DNA from: Kiritimatiellia bacterium
Lineage (GTDB): Bacteria > Verrucomicrobiota > Kiritimatiellia > RFP12 > DVOR01
Reading direction: 5' to 3'
NCBI GenBank assembly: GCA_017558005.1
Contig: JAFYWN010000018.1
Coordinates: forward strand, 3,696 to 67,695
DNA: 64,000 bases
Positions 7,958 to 62,095 of the stretch are shown here, piece by piece. Position numbers and translations under genes: made by a program. The stretch's first letter is position 1; every line of letters begins with the position of its first letter. Under the pieces are notes generated by a model. It saw nothing but the letters and a program-made list of their open reading frames with translations, was not told where the DNA came from and did no database searches.

Positions 7958-9771
7958 GCCCGTTGCTCCTGGATAAATTGGCGAATTTTCGTCAGGAGTG
8001 AGGCTTGATCAAGCGCTCCCCATGTGCGCAATTCTTGTTCGGAACCTTGTGGCACGAAGTGGTCATCCCACCCCAAAATCAACACCGGAGCATCATGCGT
8101 TTCGGCAACCGCCGAACCAAATCCCGCCTGAATCGCCGCATTTTCCAAGGTGATTAAGGGGCGACCTTTGAGGTTGTTCAAGCACTCTGGCAATGGTTTG
8201 ATTCGCTCAATGGCGATGTAGGGCAGACCCAATTCGGTGGCGATAGGTGCCGCCCAGGTTGCCGTATCACCCAATGCAAGGAGGCACGGGGTCTTTAGGG
8301 TCTCTGGAATCGGCAAGGATTCGGGCAACTGTTCACAAATGGGACCACGTGGATAACGGATGATAACAGCATCATTGCCCGTTAATGCTTCACGCATTGC
8401 CTGCTTTAAGCCCGCACGGGTGGCTGGCGCATAGAAGGTTAGATTCGGAAGCGCACGGAACATCGCAATGTCATAAAGACCATGATGGGTCGGACCATCT
8501 GCCCCAACGACGCCCGCACGGTCCAAGCAGAGCGTGACGGGTAAGTGAGGCAAACAAATGTCGTGCATCATGCAGTCAACGGCACGCTGGGCAAAGGTTG
8601 AGTAAATCGCCACGAAGGGGCGAAGCCCTTCTGCGGCAAGTCCTGCCGCAAAGGCAAGCGCATGGGCTTCACAAATGCCCACGTCATAGGCACGTTTGGG
8701 GAATTTACGGAAGAAGTCGCCAAGGCCTGTCCCGTCGCGCATTGCAGCGGTGACTGCAACAATCCGTGGGTCTTCTGCCGCTAATTCACACAAGATGGCC
8801 CCAACTGCATCCGACCAACTTTCTGGTGCTTGCGCTTTCCCTTGCGCTGAAGTGTGTTTTGACCAAGGTGCCACGCCATGCCATTTCGAGGGATCGCGCT
8901 CTGCAGGGGCGTAACCCTTCCCTTTGACCGTCGCAATATGAAGCGCGACAGGGACGTGACCCTCCGCCGCAGCGCGCAATGCTCCGCAAAGTGCGGGGAT
9001 GTCATGACCATCAATGGGGCCGATGTAACGCAACCCAAGGTCTTCGAAGATAGCCGAACGGTGACGCAATAAAAGGGGTTTTACTGCACGCTTGAAGGCT
9101 CGATAGAGGGATTTGAGCCCCGTAAGGCGGAGCTTATGACCCGCAAGTTCCGCTGCGGCACGAATACGGTTGTAACGAATCCCTGCAATACGACGAGCAA
9201 ACATGCGTGCAAAAGCGCCGACATTCTGCGAAATGCTCATCCCATTGTCATTGATAACCAAGATCATGCGTTCGGTGGTGTGGCGAATCGCATTGAGCGC
9301 TTCAAGGGAGATGCCATTGGTTAATGAGGCATCACCTACAACCGCTAAGATGGCTTCGGTCCCATTTCGGGCGTCACGTGCTGCCGCCATGCCTAATGCC
9401 GTGGAGAGGGCCACACCTGCATGACCGCCAACGGTAGCGTCAAAGCTTGACTCGGCAGGGAAAGGAAAGCCGCGCACTCCGCCGAATTGGCGTAAGGTGT
9501 CCATCTCTTGATTGCGCCCCGTGAGCATTTTCCACGCATAACTCTGATGGCCCACATCCCAAATTACCTTGTCGGTCGGGAAATTAAAGACGCGACAAAG
9601 TGCGATTGTGAGTTCAACAGTACCTAAGCTTGGGGCGAGATGGCCTCCTGTTCGGGAGACCACATCAATCATCCGCTCACGGATTTCGGTTGCCAAACGA
9701 GGAAGCGCGTCCTCTGGCAGAAGACGAACATCCTCGGGGGTGTGGATTTGTTCTAAAAGTGTTTCGGCCAT
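7954..9771 (-). CDS. dxs: 1-deoxy-D-xylulose-5-phosphate synthase
   Basis: GGHLAPSLG, WDVGHQSY, GDASLTNG, GPIDGHD, DRAGVVGADGPTHHG. Confidence 0.96.
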   Translation of the reverse strand: MAETLLEQIHTPEDVRLLPEDALPRLATEIRERMIDVVSRTGGHLAPSLGTVELTIALCRVFNFPTDKVIWDVGHQSYAWKMLTGRNQEMDTLRQFGGVRGFPFPAESSFDATVGGHAGVALSTALGMAAARDARNGTEAILAVVGDASLTNGISLEALNAIRHTTERMILVINDNGMSISQNVGAFARMFARRIAGIRYNRIRAAAELAGHKLRLTGLKSLYRAFKRAVKPLLLRHRSAIFEDLGLRYIGPIDGHDIPALCGALRAAAEGHVPVALHIATVKGKGYAPAERDPSKWHGVAPWSKHTSAQGKAQAPESWSDAVGAILCELAAEDPRIVAVTAAMRDGTGLGDFFRKFPKRAYDVGICEAHALAFAAGLAAEGLRPFVAIYSTFAQRAVDCMMHDICLPHLPVTLCLDRAGVVGADGPTHHGLYDIAMFRALPNLTFYAPATRAGLKQAMREALTGNDAVIIRYPRGPICEQLPESLPIPETLKTPCLLALGDTATWAAPIATELGLPYIAIERIKPLPECLNNLKGRPLITLENAAIQAGFGSAVAETHDAPVLILGWDDHFVPQGSEQELRTWGALDQASLLTKIRQFIQEQRA

Positions 9772-21832: not shown

Positions 21833-21932
21833 AGGCTGGCGATGTGGGGTGTGTCTGTCATGAGAAATGCGAGCGGTCTTTGGGGGAACTCCTAAGGACC
21901 GCTATAGGACTCAAAACGCAAAGGACGTAAAG

Positions 21933-24900
21933 ATGACTACGCAAAAGACTTTTCGTGGAGTATTCCAGATGGTGTTGTTCCTTTTCTTGGGGTTGATGGC
22001 GCCTCAAGTAAAGGCTTCAACGGTTGCGCTTTTGAGTGATTCGAATACTGCAACGAATTGTACTGTGACGATGCAGGGGGTGGATGAGCAGCACAACCCC
22101 ATTTATTCTGTGATGCCGTGGGTGGAAAGTTCGCCGCGGATTCGGTTTGAGTCGCGTGCGTGGGCAGAGGAGGTGCGTTCTGCAGCATCGGCAGATCCGA
22201 CGGTGGTTGTGATGGGTGGGCGCTTGGGCGGGACTACGCCCACCTGGACCTCTGATAAAACCTTTTTAGTGATGAATTCGGTCTATGTGCCGAGCGGGGT
22301 CACCTTGACGATTCAGGCGGGCACAGTGGTGAAGTTCTGCCCAGGGACCTTTATTAAGATTGAAGATGGGGGCGCTTTAAATATCGTGGGCGCTGAGGGG
22401 CAAGATGTCATTTTGACGGCGGCGAATGACAATACGGTGGGCAGTCAAATTGTTGGGTTTGACGAGACACCCATCACGTTTGGCGGGATTGTGATTCAGT
22501 CGAGTGCGGCGAGTTTTAGCGAAAATGGGTATGTGCAGACACGTGGGTTTAAGTTTGGGAATTTCCCCACGTTGACATTGAATAACACGACCGCCTTTGC
22601 GTCGGGCGGGGTGGCGCGTATTCCCGTGACGCTCAATGGGGTGACGCGTGAGAAGATTTTTTCCATTGATTGGGTGGCCGAAGTCGATGGCGAGGCCTTT
22701 ACTTCGGGTAAGCTCACGTGGTCAAAGACGGGCGAGGGGACGAAGACGATTGAAGTGACTTTTGATGAGGCTTTTGCGTCTGCGCACGATGGATTCACGA
22801 TTCGTGTGGTGGCACATCGTGGGTGTAATGTCTCTTCGGAAACGTGTGCTGTGACCTTGAGTCAATGGGTAACTTTACCCATTGTGACTGGAATGTCAGA
22901 ATCCGCTGCAGTGGTCTATGAGGCGCGTGGGACTGCGACGGGCAAGCTCGTTCGTGGCGAAGTGACGCTGGGTGAACTCAAAGGGGGCGCAGCAACGCAG
23001 TGGGATACCACTGGCCTTTTGGATGGTTGGCAGACGGCAACTGTAGGTACAAATGCGACGGAGCTTTTGGTGCTCAATGATGCCACGATTGCGATTGAAG
23101 GGGGCCGTTTGGCTGCCGATACGACGTGGGATAACACGGTGACGCATTTGGTGCGCAATAGTGTCTATGTGCCGAGTGGGAAGACCTTGACGATTACGGC
23201 TGGTACAGTCGTGAAGTTTGGTGAAGGCACCTTTATCAAGGTGGAAGATGGCGGCAAGCTTACTGTCGTGGGTGCGGCAGGTCAGGATGTGATTTTCACC
23301 CCAGCGAATGATAACACTGTGGGGACAACTGTGCCCGGATTGGGTGATGAGACGATTACCTATGGTGGCGTGTGGGTGCAGTCGGGGAGTGCGACGTACA
23401 CGGATAATAGTTATGTGCAGTTGCGTGGGTTCAACTACGGGAGCTATCCCACGTTAACCCTAAATGATGCAACGCTATTTGCGACCGATGGAGTGGCCTA
23501 TTTGCCTGTGACGTTGAATGGCGTCACGCGAAATGCCGCATTCTCAATTGAGTGGGAGGCAGTGGTTGATGGTGAAGTCTTCCAGACGGGAGCATTGACT
23601 TGGTCTAAGACGGGCGATGGGACAAAGATTGTCGAAATTCCCTTTGATCGCACGTTTGGTGAGGCGCATGCCACCTTTACAGTGCGCATTGTAACGCATC
23701 GCGCGTGTAATGTGGGCCGCGGCGAGGCGACAGTCACCCTTTTGAAGCGTGAGACTTTAGCATTAGCAACCGATATCGCAACGTCACCTGCGGCACGCTA
23801 TGAAGGTCGTGAGGGGGAAACGGCAGCGATTGTGCGTGGTGAAGTAACCTTAGGCGAGCCCGAAGGGGGCGCAGCAACGCAGTGGGATACCACTGGCCTT
23901 TTGGACGGTTGGCAGACGGCAACTGTCGGCGAAAGCGATGCTGAACTCTTGGTGCTCAATGATCCGACGATTGCCATTGAAGGTGGTCGTATGACCGCGG
24001 ATGTGACGTGGGATAACACGGTAACGCATTTACTTCGTAATAGTGTCTATGTGCCGAGTGGGAAGACCTTGACGATTACGGCTGGCTCCGTTATAAAGTT
24101 TGGCGAAGGCACGTTTATCAAGGTGGAAGATGGCGGTAAGCTTAATGTCGTGGGCGCCGCAGGTCAAGATGTGATTCTCACCCCAGCCAATGATACTACA
24201 GTAGGGGCCCCTGTGCCCGGATTGGGTGACGAGACGATTACCTATGGTGGCGTGTGGGTACAGTCGGGAAGTGCGACGTACACGGATAATAGTTATGTAC
24301 AGTTGCGCCAGTTTAATTACGGGAACTATCCCACGGTGACCCTAAATGATGCGGTTGCACTGCGGAAGAATGGTGGCATTTATTTGGCGTTGACCTTGAG
24401 TGGCGCCACGCGCAATCAAGCCTTCTCTATTGACTGGAAGGCAACCGATGATACGGCGAAACTGGGACAAGATTATGCAGTTGCCTCTGGCTCGGTGACG
24501 TGGTCAAAGAGTGGTGAGGGGACGAAGTGGATTTATATCCCCCTCAACACAGATGAAGTCGCGGGAGAATCGCGCACCTTTACGGTGTCGATTGACGTGG
24601 CACGTGCAGTTAATGTGGCGCGTGGCGTGGCAACAGCACAGATTGATGAGTATGAAAATGCGGGCTTGAATGGTGACGAAGTGACGGTCACGGTGGGCAC
24701 TGAGTCCGCTGCGGCACCAATCCAAGAAGATATCGCAGAGCAGGTGCTCTTCTTGAACGACGTGGAAACAATTCAGTACAGTGGCCGTTGGCAGAAGTAT
24801 CCTGCAGAAGAAGCAACGAAACTGCGCGTCTCTTTGGCCACGGATAACGGCGTGACCGTCCTGAAGGAGACCACGCCAGACGATACAGGCGCATTTGATT

Positions 24901-27900
24901 TAACGCTCGCAGATTGGCCCGTGGGTTACTATACCTTGTCACATGAGGTTGAAAATGACTATGGCGAAGTGGTCGCCACGATGTCAAAGTCGTTTAGTAT
25001 TCTTGATCATGAAGATTATGAATGGCACGCTGGCACGTTGACGCAGAATGAACGCTGGACTGCGGATAAGGTGCATGTGGTTTATTCCACGGTCTATGTA
25101 CCAGCATTGTATACACTCTTCGTAGAACCCGGTGCCGTGGTGAAGTTTATGACGGGGGCGGGCATTGATATCTCGCAAGGCGGCGCCTTCTTTGGTGACT
25201 CCATCATCTTTACCCATGTGAATGATGATACGATTGGTGGTGACGTCCTCTCGGATGGGTATACTGTCGCGCCGCCGATGGATGCCTACTTCTTGAATGG
25301 TAGCTTCACCTTTGGTGATGATACGGAATTGCGTAACATTACTCAGAAGACTGCGCTCTCAGGTACGATCTCTTCAGATAAAAAGCTCTCCCGAGGATCG
25401 GTGTATCGTGTCTCTGGGACGTTGACCATTGCCAGTGGGGCGACGCTGACGATTCCTGCAGGAACGGTGCTGAAGATGGAGTCGGGGGCTACAATTAATG
25501 TGAATAGTGGTGCCACACTAAAAGCAGAAGGGACGCGCGCCCAACCCATTATCATGACCTCCATCAAAGATGACTCCGTGGGTGGAGACACCAATGGCGA
25601 CGGGAATAAGACAATGCCACAACCTGGTGATTGGCATCAGATTCGGGTCGCTGGAGGTACGTTTAATGCGAGCAACTTGTCAATGCTGTATTTAAGTAAT
25701 GGCAATAATCAGGGTGGTTTATTTGTGACAGGCGGAAGTGCGACATTAGATTTGTGCACAATCGCTCATTGCAAGTATGACGCGATGCGTTCCACGGGCG
25801 GTACGAGCTATGTTGTAAACTCTATTTTCACAGATGCATCAATTGGTGTGGCGCCGAATGGTGGATACGCCGAATACGTCAATTGTGTATTCCACTCCTT
25901 AACCACTGCGGTTCGTTGGCCTACAGGTAAATTTGTAAACTGTATCTTTAGTGAAGTTGCCTCTGTTTTCTTTGATTCTACAGGTTCAACTCCCATTCAA
26001 AATTGTGTTCTTTGGAATCCACAGGGATATGGGCCTCAATCAGTGAGTGTTACTGGCGCAAACGGCAACATTTGGGGCGATCCGCTCTTTGTGGATCCGA
26101 TGAATGGCGACTTCCGCATTGTGGAAGGGTCGCCGTGTGTGGATGCCGCCGATTCGATCGTGGCACCAGAAGTAGACTATTATGGTCAGCCACGTATTAC
26201 GATGACGGAGCAGGAAGAAGGCGCAGAACTGGTCGGTCAATTGGCAGATATTGGTATCTGCGAAGTGATGCCGCGTGACATCACCAGTGATATTGACTTG
26301 GTGCCGCTTAGCGTGCGTACGGCTTCTGAAGCAAAGATTGGTGAGCTACTCTTTGTGAAGTGGGAGGTGCAGAATGTTGGTGGTGCAGAGGTCTCAACTG
26401 CTTGGCGTGATACGATTCTCTTGGTTTCGGAGAGCGGTTGCACGGTGGCCTTGGGCGACAAGGTCGCAGGGAATCAGATCGTTGCAGGTGGTACAGTCTT
26501 CTGTTCGGGTTACTTTACGGTGCCTGCCATTGAAGAAGGCACATGGTATGTGAAGGTGAACGTCAATAGCTACCGCGACATCTTTGAAGGGTCGTTAATT
26601 CAAAATAATGCGTTGACGGGGGATCGTCCGATCACCCTTTCGTTGGACGCATTGGATGCGAATACCACGACAGAAGGCGTCGTGAATGCGAATACACCGA
26701 AGGTCTTGAAGTTTACCTATGACGAAGGTGACACCAATCGCATGATGACGGTGAAGGTGCCTGCAGGTGTCAAGGTGACATGGGGCTTCGATTTCGTGCC
26801 ACAGGGCGTCGCTAATTCGGGCTCGATGATTGCTGATGCCAATGGCGCCACGTTCCGCGTGCCTGAAGATGCTACAGATGTCTATGTCGTCATCGAAAGC
26901 GACACAACTGCAGAGTATGAAGTCTCGACCGACTCCACACAAATGGTGGTCACAAGTGTCTATCCGATGACGCTTCCCTCAAGTGGCAAAACGACCCTGA
27001 CCATCACCGGTGCAGGCTTTGATAAAGCATCCTCAATCGTTTTGTCAACAGGAGGCAAGGACTATGCCTTTGAATCGTTTGTTCAAAATGCGATGGGGAA
27101 TCTTGTCGCAACGGTGGACTGTGCCACCCTGCAAGCAGGAGCAGTGTATACCCTCACTGTCTCTGATGAAAATAATGCGGTATCTTTGACCAATGCCATC
27201 TCTGTCACAAAGGCAGAAGGTAAGGGTGAATTGGTGGCCAACTTGATTCTTCCTGAAAGTGCACGTCAAGGACGTATCGCAGTGGGGTACATTGAATACA
27301 CCAATGTTGGAACTGCTGATATGGACGCGCCAATTTTCAAGGTGATGGGGTGGCGTGAAGGTGGTCAAAAGACGGATATTGAGACGGCGCTATCTACCAC
27401 AATTGACGGTGAATTTACAGGTGAAATTCTCCTTGTAGGTATTAGCGCAACTCACCCAGCAGGCTTACTGAAGATTGGAGAAACGAATCGAATTCCTTTT
27501 TATTACAACGTTAACAGTGCTTTTAGCTTGAGATTGGCTGCGATTGACGCACAGTCGACATCTACACGTGATAGTATTTATCCTACATGGCAGTCGTTTA
27601 GCGAGGCAATCTCTGATGCAACAACAGAATTGAATCGTTTTGGAGAGTGTTTTGATTATAATGAAATTTATCGAGTTGCCATGCGAGCTGGTGTTGGTAA
27701 CGTTGTTACTACATTGCGTGGGCAAGTCTATTCAACTATAAGTGAGAGTCCTTGTGCGAATGTTACTTTACAGGTGTTTGAGTCAAATGCTGTCTTGTTG
27801 GAGAATATAACAACAAATGAAGATGGGTATTTTGAAATTAAGAATCTTAAAGTAGATGAAACATACACAATAGTTGCGAAAGGTAAATATCAATTTTCAA

Positions 27901-30900
27901 CAAATTGGTGCGCTAAAACTGCATCATTAGGAAGTGTAATCTTTTGGGTAGATCCATTAGGTGAGTTTACCTGTTCCGTAAAAGGTATTGCTGCTGATAA
28001 CGTTAATATTGTAGCTGTTGAAGTTAAAACAGGTCAGCGCGTGGAGGCTGATTTTGAAAACAATCTCTTCAATATAAAAGATTTAAGAGATGGCGAATAT
28101 ACTATTGGTGCTGAAATTAATGGGTATTATTGTTTAACCGACAATTACAACGTCACTGTTGATGATGGCGTAGCCTCTATTTCAAATGTTGAATTGGAGT
28201 TTGTCCCTTCTGGAGTCGTTGTTGGTACTGTCTTGAATGAAAAGGGAGTCCCTGTGCCCGCAGTTCAGTGTTTTGTTGAAAGAGAAGACGATGGAAAACG
28301 GTATGAGTTTTATTCAGATGAAAATGGACAATTTATAATTAACGTGCCTTCTGGCGTCTATATTGTAAGAACAGAAACTAACTATTCGCTTATCAAAGAA
28401 TATAAGATTACTGTAGTTAATCAACAAATTTCGCAAAAGGAGTTTATCGTTACGCCATGTCCCTTCATGCTTAAACCTGCAATGGGAATTGCTCCATTTG
28501 AATGTTCGTTGAAATGGAAAAAAGAATTTAATAATTATCCCGAGGCGATATCATTTGAATGGGATTTTGATAGTGACGGAGTCGTTGATTCAATTGAAGA
28601 AAGTCCAAAATGGACGTATACGAATGCGGGGGTGTATGACGTTACTTGTAATGTCACATTTGTTGATGGTACGCAAGTATTCTTTGCAAAAAAAGATGCG
28701 GTAGATGTATTGGCAGAAGAGATTGAAATACTTGCTGATGATACAGTGAAACTTGACAAATGGAGTGGTTGGGATATCATTGACGCAAGTGACGAATATA
28801 TCACAGTAAAATTTAATGAGCATTGTATCGCATCTTACTTGGACGTCGGAACGAAGATAATTCTTCCCGCGAACCCACTTTCACCATATAAAATTCTATC
28901 GCTTGAAAAGGTGGAAGACGATATGTTGTTGTTACAAGTTGAACCCATTTTCGTTGAACTTGCGTATGATACACTAGCAAAAACTTTTTCAGTAGAATTG
29001 ATGGCTGATGATAATGGATTTTATAATGGTGGCCACACGAAGTCGCTAACGCTCTCATCAGAAATTTCAAAATCTTTTTTGAATGACAAGCTTACGATTA
29101 CGGGGGGGGCATCCATTGGAGGTACTGCAACAGTTTTGATATATGAAAAAAAGCTTGAAAAGTGTGCTTTGAACGTAGAGGCAAAAGCAAGCCTTACAGG
29201 AACATTTAAAGTAGGGACAAATCTTAAAAAGGATGATGTAAAGAAGAAAAAGAACAAGAAAAAGAAAAAAAAGAAAAACGAGGATGACGATAGTAGATGT
29301 ACGATTGCGGAAAAGGTCATACTGGTTGGCTATGTTCCCATTGAGCTTAAACTTTACATCTTTGCAGATTGCGAGATTAGTATGTCGGGATCTATTACGA
29401 CAGAGGCGACTGCTTCTGTGGAGGCGGGATATTCTAAGGTTAAAGGGTGGTTTTCTGATGCTGAAGGAGATGCGAGTCTCGCGGACTTGAGTATAAATGG
29501 AAACGCTTCATTTTTCTTTGGTCTTGGGCTGGATGTCATCGCAGGGATGCCCAGCACCAAATTGACGAAATCTGTAAAACTGTCAGCATTAGACGGGACT
29601 TTTAAAGTAGGCCCTAATTTTTACGTTGATATTAAATATCATCCATCTGAGGATGAAGTGGCAGATGAGTACAAAATAGGTGCTGATATTAAATATGAGT
29701 TTACTGCAAATCTTTTAAATATTAAACTCTGGAACTTCTTGGATTGGAAAGCTCTTACATATACGGACGAACGCGCATGGCATATAATGATGTATACATG
29801 GAAGACTCCTATACCGTCATTTTATTGTGATGAGATTTATAGAGGGCAAAATCTTTCAACCGTTGAATTTAAACGAACAACTACGGTAGATCCTTTAGAG
29901 ACTCTGTTTAAATCCGGCTATTGGGAGATAAATGGTTGTGAATATCCTATTTCAACGTGGAATAATCAAACGGTGAGCCATGACTTCTATATCCCATCTG
30001 AGGATTCGGCAGATTCTGTTGAATATGATGTTGCGCTTTATGAATCATATAAGCCAGGGAATCCTCTATTTAGTAAATTAGTTCTGCCGGCATGTAAAGC
30101 AAATCGAACGACACTAACCTTTGGGACGGGGAAAGGTGAGGACGGTGGAGCAGGGTGGACCGGACTTGGAGGACATCAGGGAATACTTCCTCAATCCTGC
30201 GACCCCAATGAGATGGCGGGGCCGTTGGGGATTGGCGACCCGGAGACGGAACGTTTCGTCAAGCCGGGTGATTGGATGACCTATACGGTCTACTTTGAAA
30301 ACAAGAGTGATGCAACGGCTGCCGCGCAGGAGGTGCGTGTCACGAATCCGTTGAGTCAGTATCTTGATTGGTCGACCTTTGAGATGGGCGAAGTCTCCTT
30401 CAATAATCAAATTGACCTCGGGCTGAGTGGTAAGCAGACTGGGGCCAGTGAAGTCGCCTTGAATAACACCGCTTATAAGGTGAAGACGACTGTCGCTCTT
30501 GATCAAACAAAGGGTGAGGTGAATTGGTATCTGCGTATTGTGGACCCCTCCACGGAAACAACGTGGCCCGAGGATGTCTATGCGGGCATCTTGCCTCCCA
30601 ACGACGAGACGCATCGTGGTGAAGGTTACTTGACGTATCGCGTAAAGGTGCGTGAGGATGTACCCGCAGGGGTGCGGATTGATAATTCGGCAACGATTAT
30701 CTTTGACTATAACGAACCGATTGAAACAGACCCCGCGTGGTGGAATAGGGTGGTGCCGAGTCAGGTGCCGATGTCAATTTCTCCTGAAGCAACCCTCGTG
30801 GATGAGGGGGAAACGATCGAGGTTAAGGTCTTTGGCGGTGATTTGACGCGGCCGAGTTCGGCGCAGGTCTATTTGTCGTATCACACGGCAGCGGCTGCAG

Positions 30901-33900
30901 ACTTGGATTTGGCCAAGGCAACGGTGACGGGTGTCAATCAGACAGCGCCGAGTCGTACAAAGTTGGCCTTCCCCTTGACGTTGAATTGGGCCACGGGTGA
31001 AGTCGGCGAACAGACAATCCGAATCCCTGTGAAGGCAGACAAGACCGTGGAGGATGAGGAGACCTTTACACTTCAGCTCGCCAATCCAGAAAATATGGCA
31101 TTGGGGAGCAAGCAGGTGTGTATGGTGACGCTCCATGACACGAATGAAAAGGAACTGAAGGCAGCGGTGACGCCTTATAAACCGAAACCTGGCGAGTCGC
31201 CAGTGTCTCATCAGGTGACGGTTGGGCGGAATGATGGCGCTGCGGGCTTCGTGGCGGGGAGTGGTGAATATACCGCTGGCTCCAAGCTAACTCTCACCGC
31301 AGAGGCACGTCCGGGTTATGCCTTCGTGGGATGGGCCTTGAAGGAGGATCTTGAAAACCTTCTCTCCACCAATCCGAAGTATCAGATTGTGGTTGGTGAG
31401 GATGGCGACTATGTAGCTGTCTTTGAACCCATTCCCTATGTGCGTGGTCTTGCGACTCCGGCGGAGGGTGGTAAGGTGACGGGAAGCGGTTACTGTGCCG
31501 ACGGCAAGAAGGTGACCTTGAAGGCAAGCGCAAACAAGAACTTTGTCTTTAAAGGGTGGTATGCCGCCTCTGTGGAGAATCCGCAGACGCCTGATGAGGC
31601 GGTGTGCGTGGCAACAACGCCCTCGCTTGTGATTGATCGCACGGCAAAGCCGACGGCAAATTCAAAGACGTCAACGACGTTGACGGATATTGATGAGGAT
31701 GTCACCTTCTTTGCGCTCTTTGAAGGGGATCCACGCTTAGGTCTGACCATGATGCCTGAAAGCGCAGGTAAGGTGACGGGGGCAGGGCGCTATCTGCCAG
31801 GTACAAAGGTAACCCTGAAGGCAACGCCTAATAAGGGTTATGTCTTCGCAGGATGGTATCAGGATGAAGCCTTTACGATGCCGTGCGAATCCATGTTGGC
31901 GGACTATCGCAATCCAAGTTATACCTATGTGACGGGTGCAGCGGATGCAACACTCCATGCATGCTTTGTCCCCGCAGAAGAGGATCAGGTCTTAACATTA
32001 ACCGTTCAGAATAAGGTGAATGACGAGATTGCAGAAACCTTTACAATTAACGGAAAGGCTGAATTTGTACTTCTGGTGGACTCAAAGTCCTTGCCAAAGG
32101 CAACCGTGACAGGGCTTCCCACAGGCATGAAGTTCACGGCAACGCCTGTGATGGTGAAGGGGTCGAAGACCGAGGTGGAATATCCCATTAATACGATTTA
32201 TGGCACACCAACCAAGCCGGGCGTTTATACCGTAACAGTCTCGCTCACGAATAGCACAATTAAGAAGGCGATTACAAAGACCTTCGAAATTAACGTGCTG
32301 AACTTTACGGATGATTTGATCAAAGTAAAAGATTCTTACGGTCCATATGTTCCAGGTGTTTCGTATACCGTAGAGATTCCAGAAGCCGCAGGTTGCACGG
32401 TGACAGGTTTGCCCACTGGCATGAAGTGGACGGCAAAGGATATTATAGATTTAAAAACGAAGGAAGTAACAACGCCTGCGAACTCGGTCTATGGCATTCC
32501 GACGACACCTGGCAACTACACGGTCTATTTCACGAAGACGGTGGATAAGGTGAAGCACACGGCTACAGCAACCTTCATCGTGGGGCCGTATCCGCAGTTA
32601 ACCGTGGACGTTCCTGTGTGCACAGACGGAACAATTGGCGGTAAGGTGACGGGTGCGGGTGGTTTTGCCGCGAATAAGAAGGTTACCTTGAGGGCAACGC
32701 CAAACAAGGGCTATGTCTTCGCCGGGTGGTACAAGGATGCTTTCTTTGAAACACCTTGCGATTCCACGATAATGGACTATCGCAATCCAAGCTATACCTA
32801 TGTGATGGGTGATTGCGACACGCAATTCTATGCCCGATTCGTCACCAAGGAAGATGAAGCGGATTACAAGATGGGAATCGCTTTGTATCCATTGGATGCG
32901 CCGACTTTGGAAATTGATGAACTCGTTTACAAGGCGGGTGAAGCAATTTTGCCGATTTGGGTGATGGTGGATTCGCTCACCTTGCCAAAGGTGACCGTGA
33001 AGGGTCTCCCGAAGGGAATGCAGTTTGATGCCAAGACCTTCACGATTTCGGGAATGCCAACGCAACCTGGCGATTACGTCGTCTACATTGAAGCGGTCAA
33101 TGCTTCGAAGTCGTGTGTGGCAGTTGCGGAATTCTACTTCACAATCACACACTATGATGCACATGGGCTCCATCAGGATGAAGAAAAAGTCCTGATGGTA
33201 GCCGCCTTTGAAGCGGGTGAAATCGTTTTGGATGAGAACTTTAGTGACTTGTTGAACAGCGTTTCCGTCAAGTCATTCAAATTGCCCAGTGGCTTAAGCT
33301 ACGATTCAAAGACGAATTCCATCAAAGGCAATGGTACGCTAAAGTGTGGCACCTACGTCGCAACACTTACCGATACTGAAGGCAAAGTGACCTCCTTCAC
33401 GCTCGTGGCGGAACTTACCGACGAGGATAAGTTCACGTATCGGAACGCCCTATCACTTAATCCAGAATATGCTTATGGTTATGAGGGTATTGTTCAAGGT
33501 GTTAACGCAGAGGTCTTTTGGCTTGAGGTTCTAAAATCTTGCGATGATTTTGGAGGTGGTTCTGACGTTTGTTTATTGGACGCAGAAGAGGCTAAGGCAC
33601 TAAGTATTAAGGTCTCTGGTTTGCCGACGGGATTGAAGGCAAACTTTGAAAAAGAGTATGTTGAGGAGTGGGAGGGTGATGAATATGTGAGAGATGTCTA
33701 TGCGTGCGATCTTTGGTTGGAAGGTAAGACCTCGGCTGCGCCTGGAGATTATCATGTAACTGTAACCATCACGAATAGTCGTACAGGACAAGTGGAACAT
33801 GTTCCTTCATTAATTCGCATCTATCCTCCACAACCTATTCAAACGACTTGGAACGCTTCGTTTTCAACAGAAATGGTTGATGAAGAAACTGGCGAAGTGC

Positions 33901-34238
33901 GCAATGCACATGCGGATGTGGTCTACACCATTGATGGGACAAGCGGTAGTGTGACGTATTCTCTCACCATTGATCCGAGCATAAGTAATCCCACAGAAAA
34001 ACCAATCACAAGGTCTGGCAAGTTCTCCCTTTGGTGCATTGGTGTAAGAGAAAACTTAGACGGAGAGACATACTACTTGTATGAGTTTGACCACATTACC
34101 ATGACAACCGAAGTCTATGCATGGATTAATATCAATGCGTCACATGAGATTCAGTCTCTCCACTTTGATTATTGGGAAGAGCGTCTCTCAGATGTATATG
34201 ACTGGGTCCTCTGGGAGTGGGATGATTCTCCTTGGTGA
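21933..34238 (+). CDS. Giant (~4100 aa) secreted multidomain surface protein/adhesin
   Basis: Signal peptide MTTQK...QVKA with AAGGA-like RBS (start at 21933). Repeated beta-rich units, Calx-beta-like, choice-of-anchor-Q-like (GDPLFVD...GDFRI...SPCVDA), CARDB-like, IPT/TIG-like, carboxypeptidase-regulatory-like, PKD-like, SCDPNE domain, InlB-B/Flg_new-like and putative-Ig (GLPxG) repeats. Domain names assigned by eye. Confidence 0.85.
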   Translation: MTTQKTFRGVFQMVLFLFLGLMAPQVKASTVALLSDSNTATNCTVTMQGVDEQHNPIYSVMPWVESSPRIRFESRAWAEEVRSAASADPTVVVMGGRLGGTTPTWTSDKTFLVMNSVYVPSGVTLTIQAGTVVKFCPGTFIKIEDGGALNIVGAEGQDVILTAANDNTVGSQIVGFDETPITFGGIVIQSSAASFSENGYVQTRGFKFGNFPTLTLNNTTAFASGGVARIPVTLNGVTREKIFSIDWVAEVDGEAFTSGKLTWSKTGEGTKTIEVTFDEAFASAHDGFTIRVVAHRGCNVSSETCAVTLSQWVTLPIVTGMSESAAVVYEARGTATGKLVRGEVTLGELKGGAATQWDTTGLLDGWQTATVGTNATELLVLNDATIAIEGGRLAADTTWDNTVTHLVRNSVYVPSGKTLTITAGTVVKFGEGTFIKVEDGGKLTVVGAAGQDVIFTPANDNTVGTTVPGLGDETITYGGVWVQSGSATYTDNSYVQLRGFNYGSYPTLTLNDATLFATDGVAYLPVTLNGVTRNAAFSIEWEAVVDGEVFQTGALTWSKTGDGTKIVEIPFDRTFGEAHATFTVRIVTHRACNVGRGEATVTLLKRETLALATDIATSPAARYEGREGETAAIVRGEVTLGEPEGGAATQWDTTGLLDGWQTATVGESDAELLVLNDPTIAIEGGRMTADVTWDNTVTHLLRNSVYVPSGKTLTITAGSVIKFGEGTFIKVEDGGKLNVVGAAGQDVILTPANDTTVGAPVPGLGDETITYGGVWVQSGSATYTDNSYVQLRQFNYGNYPTVTLNDAVALRKNGGIYLALTLSGATRNQAFSIDWKATDDTAKLGQDYAVASGSVTWSKSGEGTKWIYIPLNTDEVAGESRTFTVSIDVARAVNVARGVATAQIDEYENAGLNGDEVTVTVGTESAAAPIQEDIAEQVLFLNDVETIQYSGRWQKYPAEEATKLRVSLATDNGVTVLKETTPDDTGAFDLTLADWPVGYYTLSHEVENDYGEVVATMSKSFSILDHEDYEWHAGTLTQNERWTADKVHVVYSTVYVPALYTLFVEPGAVVKFMTGAGIDISQGGAFFGDSIIFTHVNDDTIGGDVLSDGYTVAPPMDAYFLNGSFTFGDDTELRNITQKTALSGTISSDKKLSRGSVYRVSGTLTIASGATLTIPAGTVLKMESGATINVNSGATLKAEGTRAQPIIMTSIKDDSVGGDTNGDGNKTMPQPGDWHQIRVAGGTFNASNLSMLYLSNGNNQGGLFVTGGSATLDLCTIAHCKYDAMRSTGGTSYVVNSIFTDASIGVAPNGGYAEYVNCVFHSLTTAVRWPTGKFVNCIFSEVASVFFDSTGSTPIQNCVLWNPQGYGPQSVSVTGANGNIWGDPLFVDPMNGDFRIVEGSPCVDAADSIVAPEVDYYGQPRITMTEQEEGAELVGQLADIGICEVMPRDITSDIDLVPLSVRTASEAKIGELLFVKWEVQNVGGAEVSTAWRDTILLVSESGCTVALGDKVAGNQIVAGGTVFCSGYFTVPAIEEGTWYVKVNVNSYRDIFEGSLIQNNALTGDRPITLSLDALDANTTTEGVVNANTPKVLKFTYDEGDTNRMMTVKVPAGVKVTWGFDFVPQGVANSGSMIADANGATFRVPEDATDVYVVIESDTTAEYEVSTDSTQMVVTSVYPMTLPSSGKTTLTITGAGFDKASSIVLSTGGKDYAFESFVQNAMGNLVATVDCATLQAGAVYTLTVSDENNAVSLTNAISVTKAEGKGELVANLILPESARQGRIAVGYIEYTNVGTADMDAPIFKVMGWREGGQKTDIETALSTTIDGEFTGEILLVGISATHPAGLLKIGETNRIPFYYNVNSAFSLRLAAIDAQSTSTRDSIYPTWQSFSEAISDATTELNRFGECFDYNEIYRVAMRAGVGNVVTTLRGQVYSTISESPCANVTLQVFESNAVLLENITTNEDGYFEIKNLKVDETYTIVAKGKYQFSTNWCAKTASLGSVIFWVDPLGEFTCSVKGIAADNVNIVAVEVKTGQRVEADFENNLFNIKDLRDGEYTIGAEINGYYCLTDNYNVTVDDGVASISNVELEFVPSGVVVGTVLNEKGVPVPAVQCFVEREDDGKRYEFYSDENGQFIINVPSGVYIVRTETNYSLIKEYKITVVNQQISQKEFIVTPCPFMLKPAMGIAPFECSLKWKKEFNNYPEAISFEWDFDSDGVVDSIEESPKWTYTNAGVYDVTCNVTFVDGTQVFFAKKDAVDVLAEEIEILADDTVKLDKWSGWDIIDASDEYITVKFNEHCIASYLDVGTKIILPANPLSPYKILSLEKVEDDMLLLQVEPIFVELAYDTLAKTFSVELMADDNGFYNGGHTKSLTLSSEISKSFLNDKLTITGGASIGGTATVLIYEKKLEKCALNVEAKASLTGTFKVGTNLKKDDVKKKKNKKKKKKKNEDDDSRCTIAEKVILVGYVPIELKLYIFADCEISMSGSITTEATASVEAGYSKVKGWFSDAEGDASLADLSINGNASFFFGLGLDVIAGMPSTKLTKSVKLSALDGTFKVGPNFYVDIKYHPSEDEVADEYKIGADIKYEFTANLLNIKLWNFLDWKALTYTDERAWHIMMYTWKTPIPSFYCDEIYRGQNLSTVEFKRTTTVDPLETLFKSGYWEINGCEYPISTWNNQTVSHDFYIPSEDSADSVEYDVALYESYKPGNPLFSKLVLPACKANRTTLTFGTGKGEDGGAGWTGLGGHQGILPQSCDPNEMAGPLGIGDPETERFVKPGDWMTYTVYFENKSDATAAAQEVRVTNPLSQYLDWSTFEMGEVSFNNQIDLGLSGKQTGASEVALNNTAYKVKTTVALDQTKGEVNWYLRIVDPSTETTWPEDVYAGILPPNDETHRGEGYLTYRVKVREDVPAGVRIDNSATIIFDYNEPIETDPAWWNRVVPSQVPMSISPEATLVDEGETIEVKVFGGDLTRPSSAQVYLSYHTAAAADLDLAKATVTGVNQTAPSRTKLAFPLTLNWATGEVGEQTIRIPVKADKTVEDEETFTLQLANPENMALGSKQVCMVTLHDTNEKELKAAVTPYKPKPGESPVSHQVTVGRNDGAAGFVAGSGEYTAGSKLTLTAEARPGYAFVGWALKEDLENLLSTNPKYQIVVGEDGDYVAVFEPIPYVRGLATPAEGGKVTGSGYCADGKKVTLKASANKNFVFKGWYAASVENPQTPDEAVCVATTPSLVIDRTAKPTANSKTSTTLTDIDEDVTFFALFEGDPRLGLTMMPESAGKVTGAGRYLPGTKVTLKATPNKGYVFAGWYQDEAFTMPCESMLADYRNPSYTYVTGAADATLHACFVPAEEDQVLTLTVQNKVNDEIAETFTINGKAEFVLLVDSKSLPKATVTGLPTGMKFTATPVMVKGSKTEVEYPINTIYGTPTKPGVYTVTVSLTNSTIKKAITKTFEINVLNFTDDLIKVKDSYGPYVPGVSYTVEIPEAAGCTVTGLPTGMKWTAKDIIDLKTKEVTTPANSVYGIPTTPGNYTVYFTKTVDKVKHTATATFIVGPYPQLTVDVPVCTDGTIGGKVTGAGGFAANKKVTLRATPNKGYVFAGWYKDAFFETPCDSTIMDYRNPSYTYVMGDCDTQFYARFVTKEDEADYKMGIALYPLDAPTLEIDELVYKAGEAILPIWVMVDSLTLPKVTVKGLPKGMQFDAKTFTISGMPTQPGDYVVYIEAVNASKSCVAVAEFYFTITHYDAHGLHQDEEKVLMVAAFEAGEIVLDENFSDLLNSVSVKSFKLPSGLSYDSKTNSIKGNGTLKCGTYVATLTDTEGKVTSFTLVAELTDEDKFTYRNALSLNPEYAYGYEGIVQGVNAEVFWLEVLKSCDDFGGGSDVCLLDAEEAKALSIKVSGLPTGLKANFEKEYVEEWEGDEYVRDVYACDLWLEGKTSAAPGDYHVTVTITNSRTGQVEHVPSLIRIYPPQPIQTTWNASFSTEMVDEETGEVRNAHADVVYTIDGTSGSVTYSLTIDPSISNPTEKPITRSGKFSLWCIGVRENLDGETYYLYEFDHITMTTEVYAWININASHEIQSLHFDYWEERLSDVYDWVLWEWDDSPW

Positions 34239-34249
34239 CCTAAAAGACC

Positions 34250-34279
34250 AAGTGGACAGGGAAGGGCCCCTGTCCACTT
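34250..34279 (+). terminator. Intrinsic terminator after the giant gene
   Basis: aagtggacaggg-aagggc-ccctgtccactt followed by ttgttt. Confidence 0.75.
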
Positions 34280-34317
34280 TTGTTTATCAACAATTGCATA
34301 ACGTTCTAGTTTTCGGC

Positions 34318-34346
34318 TTGTACTTTCCAATAAAAGGGTGTAAAGT
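34318..34346 (+). promoter_or_regulatory. Sigma70-type promoter with extended -10
   Basis: TTGTAC-17 bp-TAAAGT with TG before the -10; the same layout is conserved at 56962-56990. Confidence 0.65.
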
Positions 34347-34422
34347 ATAGAGAGATTGTTCAACTTGAGGCTGTTGGTTTCTTTTGCCACGCATTGAATT
34401 ATTTTACGAAAAGAGGTATCGA

Positions 34423-37400
34423 ATGAAAAAGTTCTTACTCGCCCTTTGCCTCTTGATGGGTCATGCCGCCCTCTACGCAGCCACGGATCTTCTCTCCACT
34501 CCGTCTGCTCATGGAAGTGATTTTGTGACAGTTACCTTTAATGCGAATGGTGGTACTGGTGGTGCGACGATTACGCAAATGCCTGGAAGTAAGCTTGAGG
34601 CACCCATTGTTGCGCGCCCAGGGCATATTTTCGTTGGTTGGGATCCTGAAGTGCCGAAAGTCGTACCTCGCGAAGCGAGAACTTACACGGCAAAGTGGAG
34701 AATGTTTGAGGGGGAATGGGCTGATATTGGTTTTGTTAGGGGTAAGTCAAATTCCAACTCCCTCGTATTCATTGACAAATTTTATACCAACAACCCATCG
34801 TTAGAGGATGAACTGGGGAGATGTACGGTTATTGGCCTTCCTAAAGGAATTACCTTTAAGCAAAGGGATTATCCTGACGATCTTGAATTTTTAATTTCAG
34901 GTAAGACGAGTGTTCCCGTGGGGGACTATCCAGTGTTGTTTCAATTTGAAGATTCCTCCTACATATCGGCTAAGATAAAGGTGCGAGATCCCCTTCCCTC
35001 ATTTACCGCGACTTACAAAAGTACCACGAAGGAAGTGCCTGTAGGTTGGGATTATGGGGATGATTGGCCTATGGAGACAAAGGCTAATGTAGATGTTGAG
35101 TATCAGGTGGTCAACGGAGAGCTGAAAAAAATTAAGTACAAAAGTTCATATTTTGATAAAGATTATGGTTCTTGGAATCGTGAGTATGAAATCTCTGATA
35201 CTAAGTACTGGGCGGTTATCACAAGGGATGGTAAAGAGGCTATAGCCGTGGGTGGAAGGTATGATTATCCAACGAGGGGTGGTGTTGAGTATGAGTGCCT
35301 TTATGCTGCGATTCTTTTTTGGGATGACAATACTGTAACAGGTGGCGTGGGATATGATTACGAGGAGGATGCGAGGGGAAATATTTACATCATTGAAGGG
35401 CATGGTAACTGGGGCGGCGCTCCCATTGAGGTAAAATGCACGAGCTACTTTGGTGTTGAGAATATTGGGAGTGGATCCGGCAAAACAACACATTCAGGCA
35501 CGGTTGCGTTAGGCAATTCAGTGACGTTAAAGGCCACGGCAGATAAGGGAAGTCTCTTTGCTGGATGGTATTCGGATCCCGAGGGGCGACGTCCCTTAAA
35601 AGCGGCAGTAGATTATCGCACGACATCTCTTTCGCATACAATTACTAACGCTTTTGAAAAAGTGTATGCAAAGTTTGTCACAGCAGAAGAGGACCACTTG
35701 TTAACGTTAACTGTGAAAGGGAAAGAAATAACCGATGGCTCACACACCTTTATGGTGGATGGCCCGTTTGTTTTGACCTTTGACGTTGGCTCAAATTCAC
35801 TTCCGAAGGTTTCAGTAAAGGGGCTCCCCGCTGGGATGAAGTTTACTGCTACGCCAGTGATGGTCAAGGGTTCAAAGACGGAGGTGGAATATCCTGCGAA
35901 TAGCATTTATGGTACACCGACGAAGCCGGGTATTTATACGGTGACGGTCTCGCTTACGAACACGACTGTGAAGAAGGCAATTACAAAGACCTTTAATATT
36001 AAGGTGCCGAATTTGACAGCGCCTGACATTGATATTGACGATTGCTACGGAGAATACATCCCTGGCGTTTCGTACACAAAGCCGATTCCTGGAGCAGAGG
36101 GTTGTACTGTGACGGGCTTACCTGCAGGCATGAAGTGGACGGCAAAGGATATTTACAAGAAGGGTTCTAAGACGGAAGTTGAAACGCGTGCGAACTCGGT
36201 CTATGGAGTGCCGACAACGCCTGGTAACTACACGGTCTACTTCACAAAGACGGTGGATAAGGTGAAGCACACAGCTACGGCGACCTTCATCGTGGGACCG
36301 TATCCGCAGTTAAGCATTACAGTAAATGATGAAGCTGGTGGTAAGGTAACTGGCACAGGTGGCTTTGCTGCGAACAAGACGACAACTTTGAAGGCAACGC
36401 CGAACAAGGGTTATGTTTTTGCTGGATGGTACGAAGATGCAACCTTTGAAAACCCGTGTGACTCCACTTTAGTGGATTATCGCAATCCAAGCTATACTTA
36501 TGTGATGGGAGCAACAAATAAGACCTTCTACGCTCGCTTTGTCCCAGCAGAAGAGGATCACTTGTTAACGTTAACTGTAAAAGGGAAAGAAATAACCGAT
36601 GGTTCACACACCTTTATGGTGGATGGCCCGTCTGTTTTGACCTTTGATGTTGGCTCAAATTCACTTCCGAAGGTCTCTGTGAAGGGGCTCCCCGCTGGGA
36701 TGAAGTTCACGGCGAAGCCTGTGATGAAGAAGGGTTCGAAGACGGAGGTGGAATATCCTGCTAATACGATCTATGGGACACCAACGAAGCCTGGTATTTA
36801 CACCGTAAAGGTGGCACTCACGAACACCACAATTACGAAGGCTATTACGAAAACCTTTAACATTGAAGTGCCGAATTTGACCGCAGCGAATGAGTATTTT
36901 AATGTTACGCTTCAAAATGGTTCTGGTGACGCATACCAACTTGTTGCAGGGGATGCGAATGTGAGCAGTTTGCCCTCGCTTACGTTACGTGATCCGAACT
37001 GTAAACTTGCGGTGAGCGGTTTGCCAGCAGGATTGAAGTACGATGCAAAAACAGGTCAGATTGTCGGCGTGCCGACAAAGACCGGAACCTTTACGGTGAC
37101 CTTGACCGTAACAGAGGGGACGCAAAAGATTGTTTCAACGATAACAATCAAAGTTACAACTTTGCCCTCTTGGGCAATCGGAACTTTTGGAGGCGAATTA
37201 GAAAACCAATGGCTTGAAGACGATGGCCCTGCGTATGCATATGGAGATGCCTATCTTGAGATTGATGACGAAGGCTATGTGTTTGGACAGATTGAATTGT
37301 GGGATGACTACAGTTACACATACAGCGATATCGCGACTAAGGCGACCGTAAAGATATTGGCGGATGGTTGTTGTTTGCTGAAAATTCCTGCAGATATCTA

Positions 37401-37932
37401 CACAGAAATGATCGATGAAGGCTATACGTACCATGAGGGACGTTACACATTGGAAGCAACGATAGATAAGACGGGCTATCTTTCGCTGGACTATGGTCGT
37501 CGCGATTATGGTGAGTTTCTTCACGGAGACTTATTTCAATGGGGTGATTCTTTGCCCTCTTGGGTGACGGGAACATACTCCTGCGATTATCTCGAGAATG
37601 GATGGTGGTGTGACGACTGCGATCAAATGGAATACGCATATGGTAATGGATGGGTTGAGATTGATGCGGCAGGCAATGTTTTGGGGAAAATCAATCTTTG
37701 GGATGATAGCTCCTATACATACGCAGACGTTGATGCTAAGGCGGCCGTAAAACTTAAAGATGATGGTACGTATTCTTTGAAGTTTAGTGTGAATGTTTAT
37801 ACAAAGCATCACGACGGCAGAACCGAATATGAAGGTCGCTTTATACTTGAAGTAATCGTAAATGATGAGGGGAAACTTTTGCTTGATTACAGAGACCCGA
37901 GCGATTACGTAAGAGGAACCTTTTGGAAATGA
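34423..37932 (+). CDS. Secreted surface protein (~1170 aa) with InlB-B-like and putative-Ig repeats, paralogous to the giant protein's stalk
   Basis: AAGAGG RBS, signal peptide MKKFLLALCLLMGHAALYA; GYVFAGWY, GLPAGMKF...YGTPTKPG repeats; internal 864-bp duplication; duplicated LPSW..GT C-terminal domain. Confidence 0.85.
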   Translation: MKKFLLALCLLMGHAALYAATDLLSTPSAHGSDFVTVTFNANGGTGGATITQMPGSKLEAPIVARPGHIFVGWDPEVPKVVPREARTYTAKWRMFEGEWADIGFVRGKSNSNSLVFIDKFYTNNPSLEDELGRCTVIGLPKGITFKQRDYPDDLEFLISGKTSVPVGDYPVLFQFEDSSYISAKIKVRDPLPSFTATYKSTTKEVPVGWDYGDDWPMETKANVDVEYQVVNGELKKIKYKSSYFDKDYGSWNREYEISDTKYWAVITRDGKEAIAVGGRYDYPTRGGVEYECLYAAILFWDDNTVTGGVGYDYEEDARGNIYIIEGHGNWGGAPIEVKCTSYFGVENIGSGSGKTTHSGTVALGNSVTLKATADKGSLFAGWYSDPEGRRPLKAAVDYRTTSLSHTITNAFEKVYAKFVTAEEDHLLTLTVKGKEITDGSHTFMVDGPFVLTFDVGSNSLPKVSVKGLPAGMKFTATPVMVKGSKTEVEYPANSIYGTPTKPGIYTVTVSLTNTTVKKAITKTFNIKVPNLTAPDIDIDDCYGEYIPGVSYTKPIPGAEGCTVTGLPAGMKWTAKDIYKKGSKTEVETRANSVYGVPTTPGNYTVYFTKTVDKVKHTATATFIVGPYPQLSITVNDEAGGKVTGTGGFAANKTTTLKATPNKGYVFAGWYEDATFENPCDSTLVDYRNPSYTYVMGATNKTFYARFVPAEEDHLLTLTVKGKEITDGSHTFMVDGPSVLTFDVGSNSLPKVSVKGLPAGMKFTAKPVMKKGSKTEVEYPANTIYGTPTKPGIYTVKVALTNTTITKAITKTFNIEVPNLTAANEYFNVTLQNGSGDAYQLVAGDANVSSLPSLTLRDPNCKLAVSGLPAGLKYDAKTGQIVGVPTKTGTFTVTLTVTEGTQKIVSTITIKVTTLPSWAIGTFGGELENQWLEDDGPAYAYGDAYLEIDDEGYVFGQIELWDDYSYTYSDIATKATVKILADGCCLLKIPADIYTEMIDEGYTYHEGRYTLEATIDKTGYLSLDYGRRDYGEFLHGDLFQWGDSLPSWVTGTYSCDYLENGWWCDDCDQMEYAYGNGWVEIDAAGNVLGKINLWDDSSYTYADVDAKAAVKLKDDGTYSLKFSVNVYTKHHDGRTEYEGRFILEVIVNDEGKLLLDYRDPSDYVRGTFWK

Positions 37933-56990: not shown

Positions 56991-57084
56991 ATATGTGAGG
57001 ATATGATGTTAAGATGAGGCGGTACTCTTATATCATGCATTGAAATTATCATGCATTGAAATGTTTTACGAAAAGAGGTGTAAA

Positions 57085-60606: not shown

Positions 60607-60702
60607 CGATTGCCCAAAAAGATCGCACGACTAAGAAGCTCTGTCAATGAAGGTGTTTATCATTTTAACGCACTAACATTCCAGTTGTGTTCGGGTGCTA
60701 AT

Positions 60703-60738
60703 AAATTAGGGCGACGCGAGTATCGCGTGCCCTAATTT
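60703..60738 (+). terminator. Long hairpin, probable terminator
   Basis: aaattagggc-g-acgcga-gta-tcgcgt-gccctaattt. Confidence 0.7.
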
Positions 60739-62067: not shown

Positions 62068-62095
62068 TTGACATACTATTGAATGAGGTACGCTA

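Follow-up and report, generated by a model that had tools for sequence, protein, structure and literature searches.

We analysed a stretch of 64,000 nucleotides (the window) on contig JAFYWN010000018.1 of the Kiritimatiellia bacterium assembly GCA_017558005.1, in which a single giant open reading frame (ORF) contains an AT-rich, in-frame segment that we call the cassette. The cassette is very probably one allele of a hypervariable central module in a giant secreted or surface protein, exchanged by recombination and probably serving in binding or recognition. An original prediction, made from the letters of the window, had proposed that the segment is an exchangeable payload between conserved flanks. 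The comparisons described below support this proposal and extend it to the whole protein family, in which about 10 classes of module occupy the same slot.

The source genome is a metagenome-assembled genome (MAG) of 2.05 Mb in 37 contigs, about 90% complete. The giant ORF and the other features discussed here are listed in Table 1; the publicly called version of the protein has 4,101 residues and starts at M23 (nucleotide 21933). On its N-terminal side the protein carries a signal peptide, a beta-helix (precomputed annotation puts Beta_helix_4 in the N-terminal third), Calx-beta repeats and a TIG domain. The cassette is followed by DUF7619, by Flg_new_2 and He_PIG repeats and by a C-terminus that ends in Trp. 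Pfam matched four stretches to Flg_new_2 and two to Flg_new, besides He_PIG, and an NCBIfam scan gave nothing beyond the Pfam result. RTX/glycine-rich repeats, a cysteine-protease domain (CPD) and a type I secretion system (T1SS) signature were not detected in the giant protein with either collection. Its named relatives are all from Kiritimatiellia/Kiritimatiellae MAGs of ruminant and human guts.

The original prediction had noted a sharp change of composition within the ORF, and its four hand counts of G+C (17/60, 23/60, 29/60 and 36/60) proved exact. The GC content is 0.388 at 27480-30224, the interval that it proposed, against 0.506 at 24500-27200 and 0.517 at 30250-33000; within the ORF it drops from ~0.51 to 0.38. 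The AT-rich segment is real, but the proposed interval lies slightly too far to the right, the actual limits being about 27330 and 30100. When codon positions were examined in windows of 100 codons, the GC content of third positions (GC3) was 0.23-0.41 over residues ~1830-2740 and 0.53-0.64 in the flanks. A GC3 range of 0.20-0.37 was also obtained over the same residues, and the overall drop is from ~0.57 to ~0.30. The values for first and second positions (GC1 and GC2) drop far less across the cassette, indicating a shift in synonymous composition and not only in amino acid content. The 3′ edge of the shift is sharp (30060-30120) and the 5′ edge is graded (27330-27600).

These values were set against two genome baselines, the GC content of 6,560 sliding windows of 2.4 kb (mean 0.524, standard deviation 0.040) and the GC3 of ORFs of at least 400 residues (0.587, standard deviation 0.071). 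The cassette is the sixth-lowest GC island of the genome, at 0.379, and only 0.4% of these ORFs have a GC3 of 0.31 or less. The other low-GC islands span whole genes, so that an in-frame intragenic island is unusual here. The departure from the genome norm lies in the cassette, the flanks of the giant gene being native-like in GC3. A cassette GC3 of 0.31 against a genome norm of 0.59 points to a sequence history different from that of the flanks. Elsewhere in the genome, a 1,913-residue Flg_new_2 ORF on the minus strand of contig C35 (~59.5-62.5 kb) has an AT-rich stretch of 900 codons with a GC3 of 0.31, and intragenic AT-rich patches may be general in the giant surface genes of this organism. 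In genomes of the same genus (loci L031-L034; G003, G007 and G024) this gene family has a GC3 of ~0.85-0.95, against 0.59 for the window genome, so that composition differs very widely inside a single genus-level group.

Comparison with other strains located the edges of the exchanged segment. Locus L038, which encodes protein P0154, is from a strain of the same species. Its gene order matches the window on both sides (LptF/G through to FGE-sulfatase, the giant gene, ArgG, DapA, DapB, HPPK, S8 peptidase and LpxK), and the flanking genes are 97.96% identical over 6.6 kb and 96.1% identical over 8.0 kb. Within the giant gene, nucleotide identity to L038 is 93% at 22065-25643, is high at 26066-26275 and is down to 70% by 26800. 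No nucleotide identity is detectable from 27010 to ~30240, and from ~30242 to the end of the gene identity averages 88.7%. By alignment block, the values are 70% at 26054-27019, nothing detectable at 27019-30200 and 88.7% at 30200-34480. The middle of P0154 is of another homology class, and its distal part is helical.

Loci L037 and L039, from other strains, encode the giant proteins P0004 and P0153. Their giant genes adjoin genes that in the window come after 60.6 kb, and therefore represent a paralogous locus in those strains. Identity to the window is 90% at 26060-27298 and 92% at 30187-32857, and the breakpoints were resolved at 30-nucleotide steps. At the protein level, residues 1481-1800 are 75-98% identical per 40-residue window, mostly at least 88%, and residues 2810-3410 are 95-100% identical to the window protein. 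Between these flanks, which are 92-99% identical in nucleotides, the ~950 residues of the cassette (within residues ~1800-2790) are only ~29% identical in amino acids, and their nucleotide identity of ~45% is saturated. The cassette is AT-rich in these genes too: its GC3 is 0.29-0.30, and that of the flanking parts is 0.56-0.58. In the window, the edges of composition and of identity agree within ~150 nucleotides. Conserved flanks around non-homologous inserts, as the original prediction anticipated, were thus found in the orthologues: the segment is absent from L038 and only distantly related in P0004 and P0153, and clearly none of these genes carries it at the identity of its flanks. Cassettes have been swapped between strains and between paralogous giant genes.

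The locus at 57040-60606 (and 59056-64000) of the window holds, in L037 and L039, a giant gene of 2,877-4,549 residues, the DUF7619/Flg_new_2 part of which is 92-99% identical to 30.2-32.9 kb of the window. The window has only a gene of 1,188 residues at this locus, without DUF7619. The near identity of the DUF7619/Flg_new_2 part at both loci points to recombination between paralogous giant genes ~25 kb apart. A second, smaller mosaic patch lies in the beta-helix region (Table 1). Most of it coincides with a local dip of GC3 (0.37 at 25767-26066), and P0154 and P0153 have in common another, AT-rich version of it. The gene that follows the giant gene (34384-37932) encodes a Flg_new_2/He_PIG surface protein with a signal peptide; it has 1,182 residues here and 725 (LRR_5/He_PIG) in L038, with patchy nucleotide identity of only 74-82%. 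The region 20-37.5 kb is a variable surface-protein island whose flanks are 96-98% identical.

Table 1. Positions in the window of the giant gene and of the features within it (pLDDT, predicted local distance difference test; AF2, AlphaFold2)
Feature	Position	Strand	Details
Giant ORF	21867..34238	+	4,123 codons/residues
Second, smaller mosaic patch, beta-helix region	25640..26065	+	near-random identity to L038 between stretches of at least 93%
5′ breakpoint zone relative to L037/L039	27210..27330	+	at least 93% identity up to 27209, 57-73% in the zone, random from 27330
AT-rich cassette ("type A"), allele-specific central module	~27330..30100	+	GC 0.38, GC3 ~0.31
CarboxypepD_reg-type (transthyretin-like) beta-sandwich domains	27717..28433	+	residues 1951-2189; two Pfam matches with an unmatched stretch between
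PKD-like domain	28542..28676	+	residues 2226-2270; weak Pfam match, PDB PKD chains at E ~0.002
Long-stranded antiparallel beta-sheet region (predicted)	29025..29804	+	residues 2387-2646; strands of 11-34 residues, pLDDT 45-90 (AF2)
Lys-rich loop KKDDVKKKKNKKKKKKKNEDDD (predicted disordered)	29226..29291	+	A-rich tract with an A8 run, GAAAAAAAAG
Ig-like beta-sandwich closing the cassette (predicted)	29820..30122	+	residues 2652-2752; pLDDT ~90 (AF2)
Gly-rich linker (predicted disordered)	30135..30200	+	residues 2757-2778; pLDDT <50; GC already at flank level
Junction motif S-C-D-P-N-E-M-A-G-P-L-G-I-G	30195..30236	+	D, P, N, M, G, P, G and G invariant in 28 aligned members
DUF7619 (PF24595)	30201..30761	+	residues 2779-2965; profile positions 1-67 and 81-129, with an insertion of ~57 residues between
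3′ breakpoint zone	30242..30286	+	L038 identity resumes at ~30242; L037/L039 at least 95% from 30286

The family was surveyed through 97 proteins that bear the sequence DPNxMxGP. From the motif onward, 250 residues are 50-95% identical to the window protein in all 97. The 950 residues before it give no BLAST match in ~60% of these proteins and 22-29% identity in the rest, and the 600 residues before it fall into ~10 unrelated clusters. The window's class (transthyretin-like, PKD and long-sheet) has 27 members and that of P0154 has 26; lipase (PF00151) classes account for 14 and 6, and eight proteins contain complete RHS shells (DUF6531, then the YD shell ending in DPSGL) followed by at least four unrelated tails of 150-170 residues. 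Cys-rich modules and others make up the remainder. The position before DPNEM is therefore a general slot. On the downstream side, variability always stops at S-x-DPNEMxGPxGxG, where DUF7619 begins; the upstream breakpoints vary. Among six high-GC homologues, the central region is the least conserved part between any two members.

The RHS cocoons are nested in giant proteins (P0191, P0197, P0203, P0242 and P0245; loci L065 and L066), and some of their tails are glycine-zipper-like. Each tail abuts DPNEM-DUF7619, after which ~900 more residues follow, an internal placement that is unusual for an RHS toxin. Both contigs with relatives of this class end at the giant gene. Stand-alone secreted proteins, consisting of a signal peptide, ~20-45 residues and S-x-DPNEM-DUF7619, are encoded at L047 (9349-10674) and L059 (9857-11920). 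In both MAGs these genes overlap by 4 nucleotides (translational coupling) with a conserved upstream set, which encodes a giant protein, a protein of ~215-250 residues, an AAA-type ATPase and a protein of ~380-395 residues. The existence of stand-alone DPNEM-DUF7619 proteins indicates that the C-terminal base is an autonomous unit.

The SCDPNE motif with which the original prediction closed the AT-rich segment was correctly located: 30195-30224 reads SCDPNEMAGP, and 30189-30230 corresponds to PQSCDPNEMAGPLG. Conservation of the motif and of DUF7619 was scored in an alignment of 28 family members. Besides the invariant positions given in Table 1, the leading Ser is nearly invariant, and the Cys is variable, being C in 41 of the 97 occurrences and I, Y, W or another residue elsewhere. 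DUF7619 matches with 65.5 bits (gathering cut-off 27), and its profile position 1 is D2779. Since D-P-N makes up profile positions 1-3, the motif is where members of this known domain family canonically begin. In P0153 the linker before DPNEM (L039, ~8380-8560) is acidic and has expanded, relative to P0004, into a (D)nPSDN repeat array, indicating that linker length is itself variable.

An alignment-based AF2 model of mean pLDDT 78.6 was used for the structure (single-sequence AF2 of residues 2292-2808 reached only pLDDT 34). The motif lies at the transition from the disordered Gly-rich linker to a confident beta-sandwich, with a pLDDT of 80-96 for DUF7619. Foldseek matched this part with probability 1.0 to the CNA collagen-binding domain 1amx (TMt 0.53), ACE 2okm, AgI/II, BcpA and SpaD, and the domain is predicted to have a CnaA-like Ig/Greek-key beta-sandwich fold. 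For the DUF7619 reference L7WFS8, an isopeptide triad of Lys657, Asp695 and Asn764 has been predicted in domain 653-784 (PMC12617251). The triad is incomplete here, the fifth residue of the domain being a Met that is invariant in the 28 sequences, as mapped to L7WFS8 by numbering and not by residue-level alignment. The 28-sequence alignment contains no invariant or nearly invariant Lys column in the DUF7619 domain, and the Asn of FDYN is nearly invariant. Judged by these sequences, this DUF7619 subfamily appears to have lost the canonical cross-link.

Within the cassette, the domains named in the original prediction were recovered, namely CarboxypepD_reg, a weak PKD match and an unassignable region, residues 2279-2748 (window 28701-30110), in which Pfam has no match. 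In the AF2 model a small beta domain (residues 2292-2360) and a helix precede the long-stranded sheet. Homologous cassettes have a K/R-rich basic loop at the same place as the Lys-rich loop of the window; the A8 tract could be prone to slippage, or the loop could be a protease-sensitive basic site. The long sheet has no confident neighbour in PDB sequence searches or in Foldseek. PDB searches with the cassette and with alignment A1 gave PKD matches or nothing, and a word-indexed homologue search with the cassette region returned only the giant protein itself. When Foldseek was run on a two-part model, only the DUF7619 part was recognised. Foldseek matches of the long sheet to TonB-dependent barrels, perforin-2, MTP/lipovitellin and phage tail proteins were not relied on, as their probabilities were at most 0.2 and their TM values below 0.1. 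Taken with the transthyretin-like and PKD sandwiches upstream, the modelled part makes the cassette look like an extracellular recognition module and not like an enzyme.

A conserved N-terminal scaffold (beta-helix, CARDB-like and TIG domains) and a conserved C-terminal base (the DUF7619 CnaA-like domain, a Calx-beta-like region and the Flg_new_2 and He_PIG repeats) frame the slot. The comparisons show that homologous recombination in these conserved segments moves whole cassettes from strain to strain and from one paralogous giant gene to another. The cassette of the window may have been imported from an AT-richer lineage, or it may be an old allele lying outside the homogenising recombination that acts on the flanks. 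It would be an all-beta extracellular module, made up of transthyretin-like and PKD/Ig-like sandwiches, the long-stranded sheet and the basic loop, and most likely would set what the protein binds or what recognises it, whether phage, antibody or competitor. Diversifying or frequency-dependent selection would then keep many cassette alleles circulating.

Several points weigh against this account. No donor lineage was found in an exhaustive search of 1.84 billion representative proteins, among which the nearest cassette was 41% identical and belonged to a partial protein. Cassette GC3 is lower than that of the downstream flank in 18 of 18 distinct genes, from genomes of 39-70% GC, with a gap of 0.03-0.40, and a deficit found throughout the family points to something systematic more than to a single import. 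Cassettes may circulate among lineages, or a homogenising, possibly GC-biased, recombination that acts on the conserved part may pass them by; less biased gene conversion and relaxed synonymous constraint are further examples of possible causes. In P0154, the third allele from the same species, the dip is only mild, with a GC3 of 0.51. In addition, we infer the binding or antigenic role from domain types only.

Other explanations were weighed against exchange of a recognition module. An artefact, whether a chimeric assembly or a mere effect of amino acid composition in a vertically inherited gene, is hardly credible. The MAG is in 37 contigs, conserved flanks of co-occurring strains could cause chimeric joins, and K, N, I and Y are abundant in the cassette. 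However, the identical 4,101-residue protein is present on six contigs of 50-200 kb, and the sequence is therefore not an assembly chimera; GC3 halves with much less change in GC1 and GC2, and the orthologue comparison shows replacement, not drift. Both forms of artefact were rejected on these grounds. It is very improbable that the genome itself generates the variation by a programmed mechanism, whether conversion from silent cassettes, a shufflon or invertase, or a diversity-generating retroelement, even though the repeated Flg_new_2 modules in several paralogues offer substrates for conversion. The genome at its ~90% completeness has no second copy of an A, B or C cassette, and type B matches nothing there but the expressed type-A cassette, with 30% identity. 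Alleles differ at ~70% of residues over 900 residues, which is not an adenine-targeted pattern, and an identical allele recurs on six contigs. With no silent copies, a non-adenine pattern and allele recurrence, switching of the retroelement or shufflon type was rejected. The original prediction had likened the gene to polymorphic toxin or adhesin systems, and relatives do hold lipase and RHS-plus-tail modules in the same slot. There is also a loose likeness to the architecture of beta-pore-formers in the long beta-strands that are predicted and in the basic loop exposed to proteases, and Foldseek gave low-probability matches to perforin-2, pneumolysin pores and TonB-dependent barrels. Nevertheless, a toxin or pore-forming payload is an improbable identity for the cassette of the window. 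It matches no toxin family in Pfam, NCBIfam or PDB, and the pore probabilities in Foldseek are at most 0.2. The variable part is internal (residues ~1800-2776 of 4,123), with 1,345 residues after it, and the downstream gene at 34384-37932 encodes the 1,182-residue surface protein and not a small immunity protein. Membership of a polymorphic toxin system was therefore not borne out, there being neither a recognisable toxin or enzyme in the cassette nor an immunity-like neighbour.

Processing at the junction would add to cassette exchange and does not exclude it. The Asp-Pro bond at the start of DUF7619 could be cleaved, autocatalytically or by a dedicated protease, freeing the N-terminal part and the payload from the base; we regard this as unlikely. 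The S-x-D-P-N-E-M-x-G-P-x-G-x-G sequence is invariant or nearly so although it lies at the boundary of a disordered linker and a domain. The canonical isopeptide Lys (Lys657, PMC12617251) is an invariant Met here, and the N-terminal strand of DUF7619 would therefore not be stapled in the canonical way. RHS shells with tails of 150-170 residues sit directly before DPNEM, and such cargo would be hard to use unless it were freed at both ends. Cleavage at such a place, the N-terminal edge of a conserved module, is known from the self-processing module of FrpC (PMC7078468). Against cleavage, D-P-N simply begins a widespread family of adhesin-stalk domains, the predicted fold is CnaA-like rather than that of a self-processing module, and there is no sequence match to any solved self-processing module in PDB. 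The stand-alone proteins, moreover, have only ~20-45 residues between signal peptide and DPN, so that there would be little to release. A more doubtful extension is that the junction and the Lys-less DUF7619 together form a new "clip" (or clip-and-link) module that frees or covalently deploys the slot cargo. If so, the cargo would comprise beta-rich binding modules, lipases or RHS-encapsulated toxins, and gut and rumen Kiritimatiellia would possess a previously undescribed delivery architecture, that of polymorphic effectors with internal payloads.

Exchange of whole cassettes in the slot has consequences of its own. Kiritimatiellia are common and almost unstudied in gut and rumen communities, and one of their largest genes is shown here to be a modular platform, the middle of which is re-equipped by recombination within the species. 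Modules of binding, lipase, Cys-rich and RHS-toxin type fill the slot in different species, and the locus is thus a practical entry point for studying how strains of these bacteria differ in surface recognition or antagonism. The gene is also a natural example of an intragenic composition shift that maps onto recombination breakpoints, and its junction, where a sharply conserved DPNEM sequence meets a degenerate isopeptide domain, is a candidate site of new protein-processing chemistry. The literature searched yielded no paper on Kiritimatiellia proteins of the giant or polymorphic kind and no description of the internal slot closed by DPNEM and a degenerate DUF7619. The type of phenomenon is known already, from MARTX effector mosaics, from the hypervariable centres of flagellin and O-antigen loci and from Rhs/CdiA polymorphism.

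MARTX toxins, such as RtxA of Vibrio, are giant secreted proteins in which a central effector block is exchanged by recombination between conserved flanks. As in the giant protein described here, the central block differs between strains of one species and the flanks are conserved. Unlike them, the giant protein has no RTX repeats, CPD or T1SS signature detectable with Pfam or NCBIfam, its module in the window has no recognisable effector activity, and it comes from a different phylum (Kiritimatiellia, PVC group). In the flagellin gene fliC and in O-antigen and capsule loci, conserved ends serve as recombination handles around many divergent, low-GC central alleles, and this population-genetic pattern matches the giant gene. 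The kind of protein is different, however, for the centre here is a string of autonomous domains of ~900 residues, which in relatives of the giant protein is replaced by non-homologous modules. Rhs and CdiA proteins likewise have a conserved motif separating a conserved from a polymorphic region, and in relatives of the giant protein the slot is occupied by genuine RHS shells with DPSGL and polymorphic tails. Here, in contrast, the variable part is internal and the motif comes after it, followed by ~1,345 residues, and the window gene has neither a toxin domain nor an immunity gene.

The DUF7619 domain of the C-terminal base resembles the isopeptide domains of the DUF7619/CLIPPER type in its Pfam match above the cut-off, its D-P-N start and its predicted CnaA-like fold, and the whole protein resembles the fibrillar adhesins of that type in being a long surface protein with stalk-type repeats (PMC12617251). 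The domain differs in having an invariant Met where the isopeptide Lys would be, with no conserved Lys, and in being single and forming a junction instead of a tandem stalk repeat. The self-processing module of FrpC and ApxIVA, which acts by Asp-Pro "clip-and-link" (PMC7078468), has a unique fold with EF-hand-like Ca sites, whereas the domain here is predicted to be CnaA-like, without sequence or fold similarity to it, and belongs to a protein without RTX repeats. The two are nevertheless alike in presenting an Asp-Pro bond, here the invariant D2779-P2780, at the N-terminal edge of a conserved internal module in a very large secreted protein.

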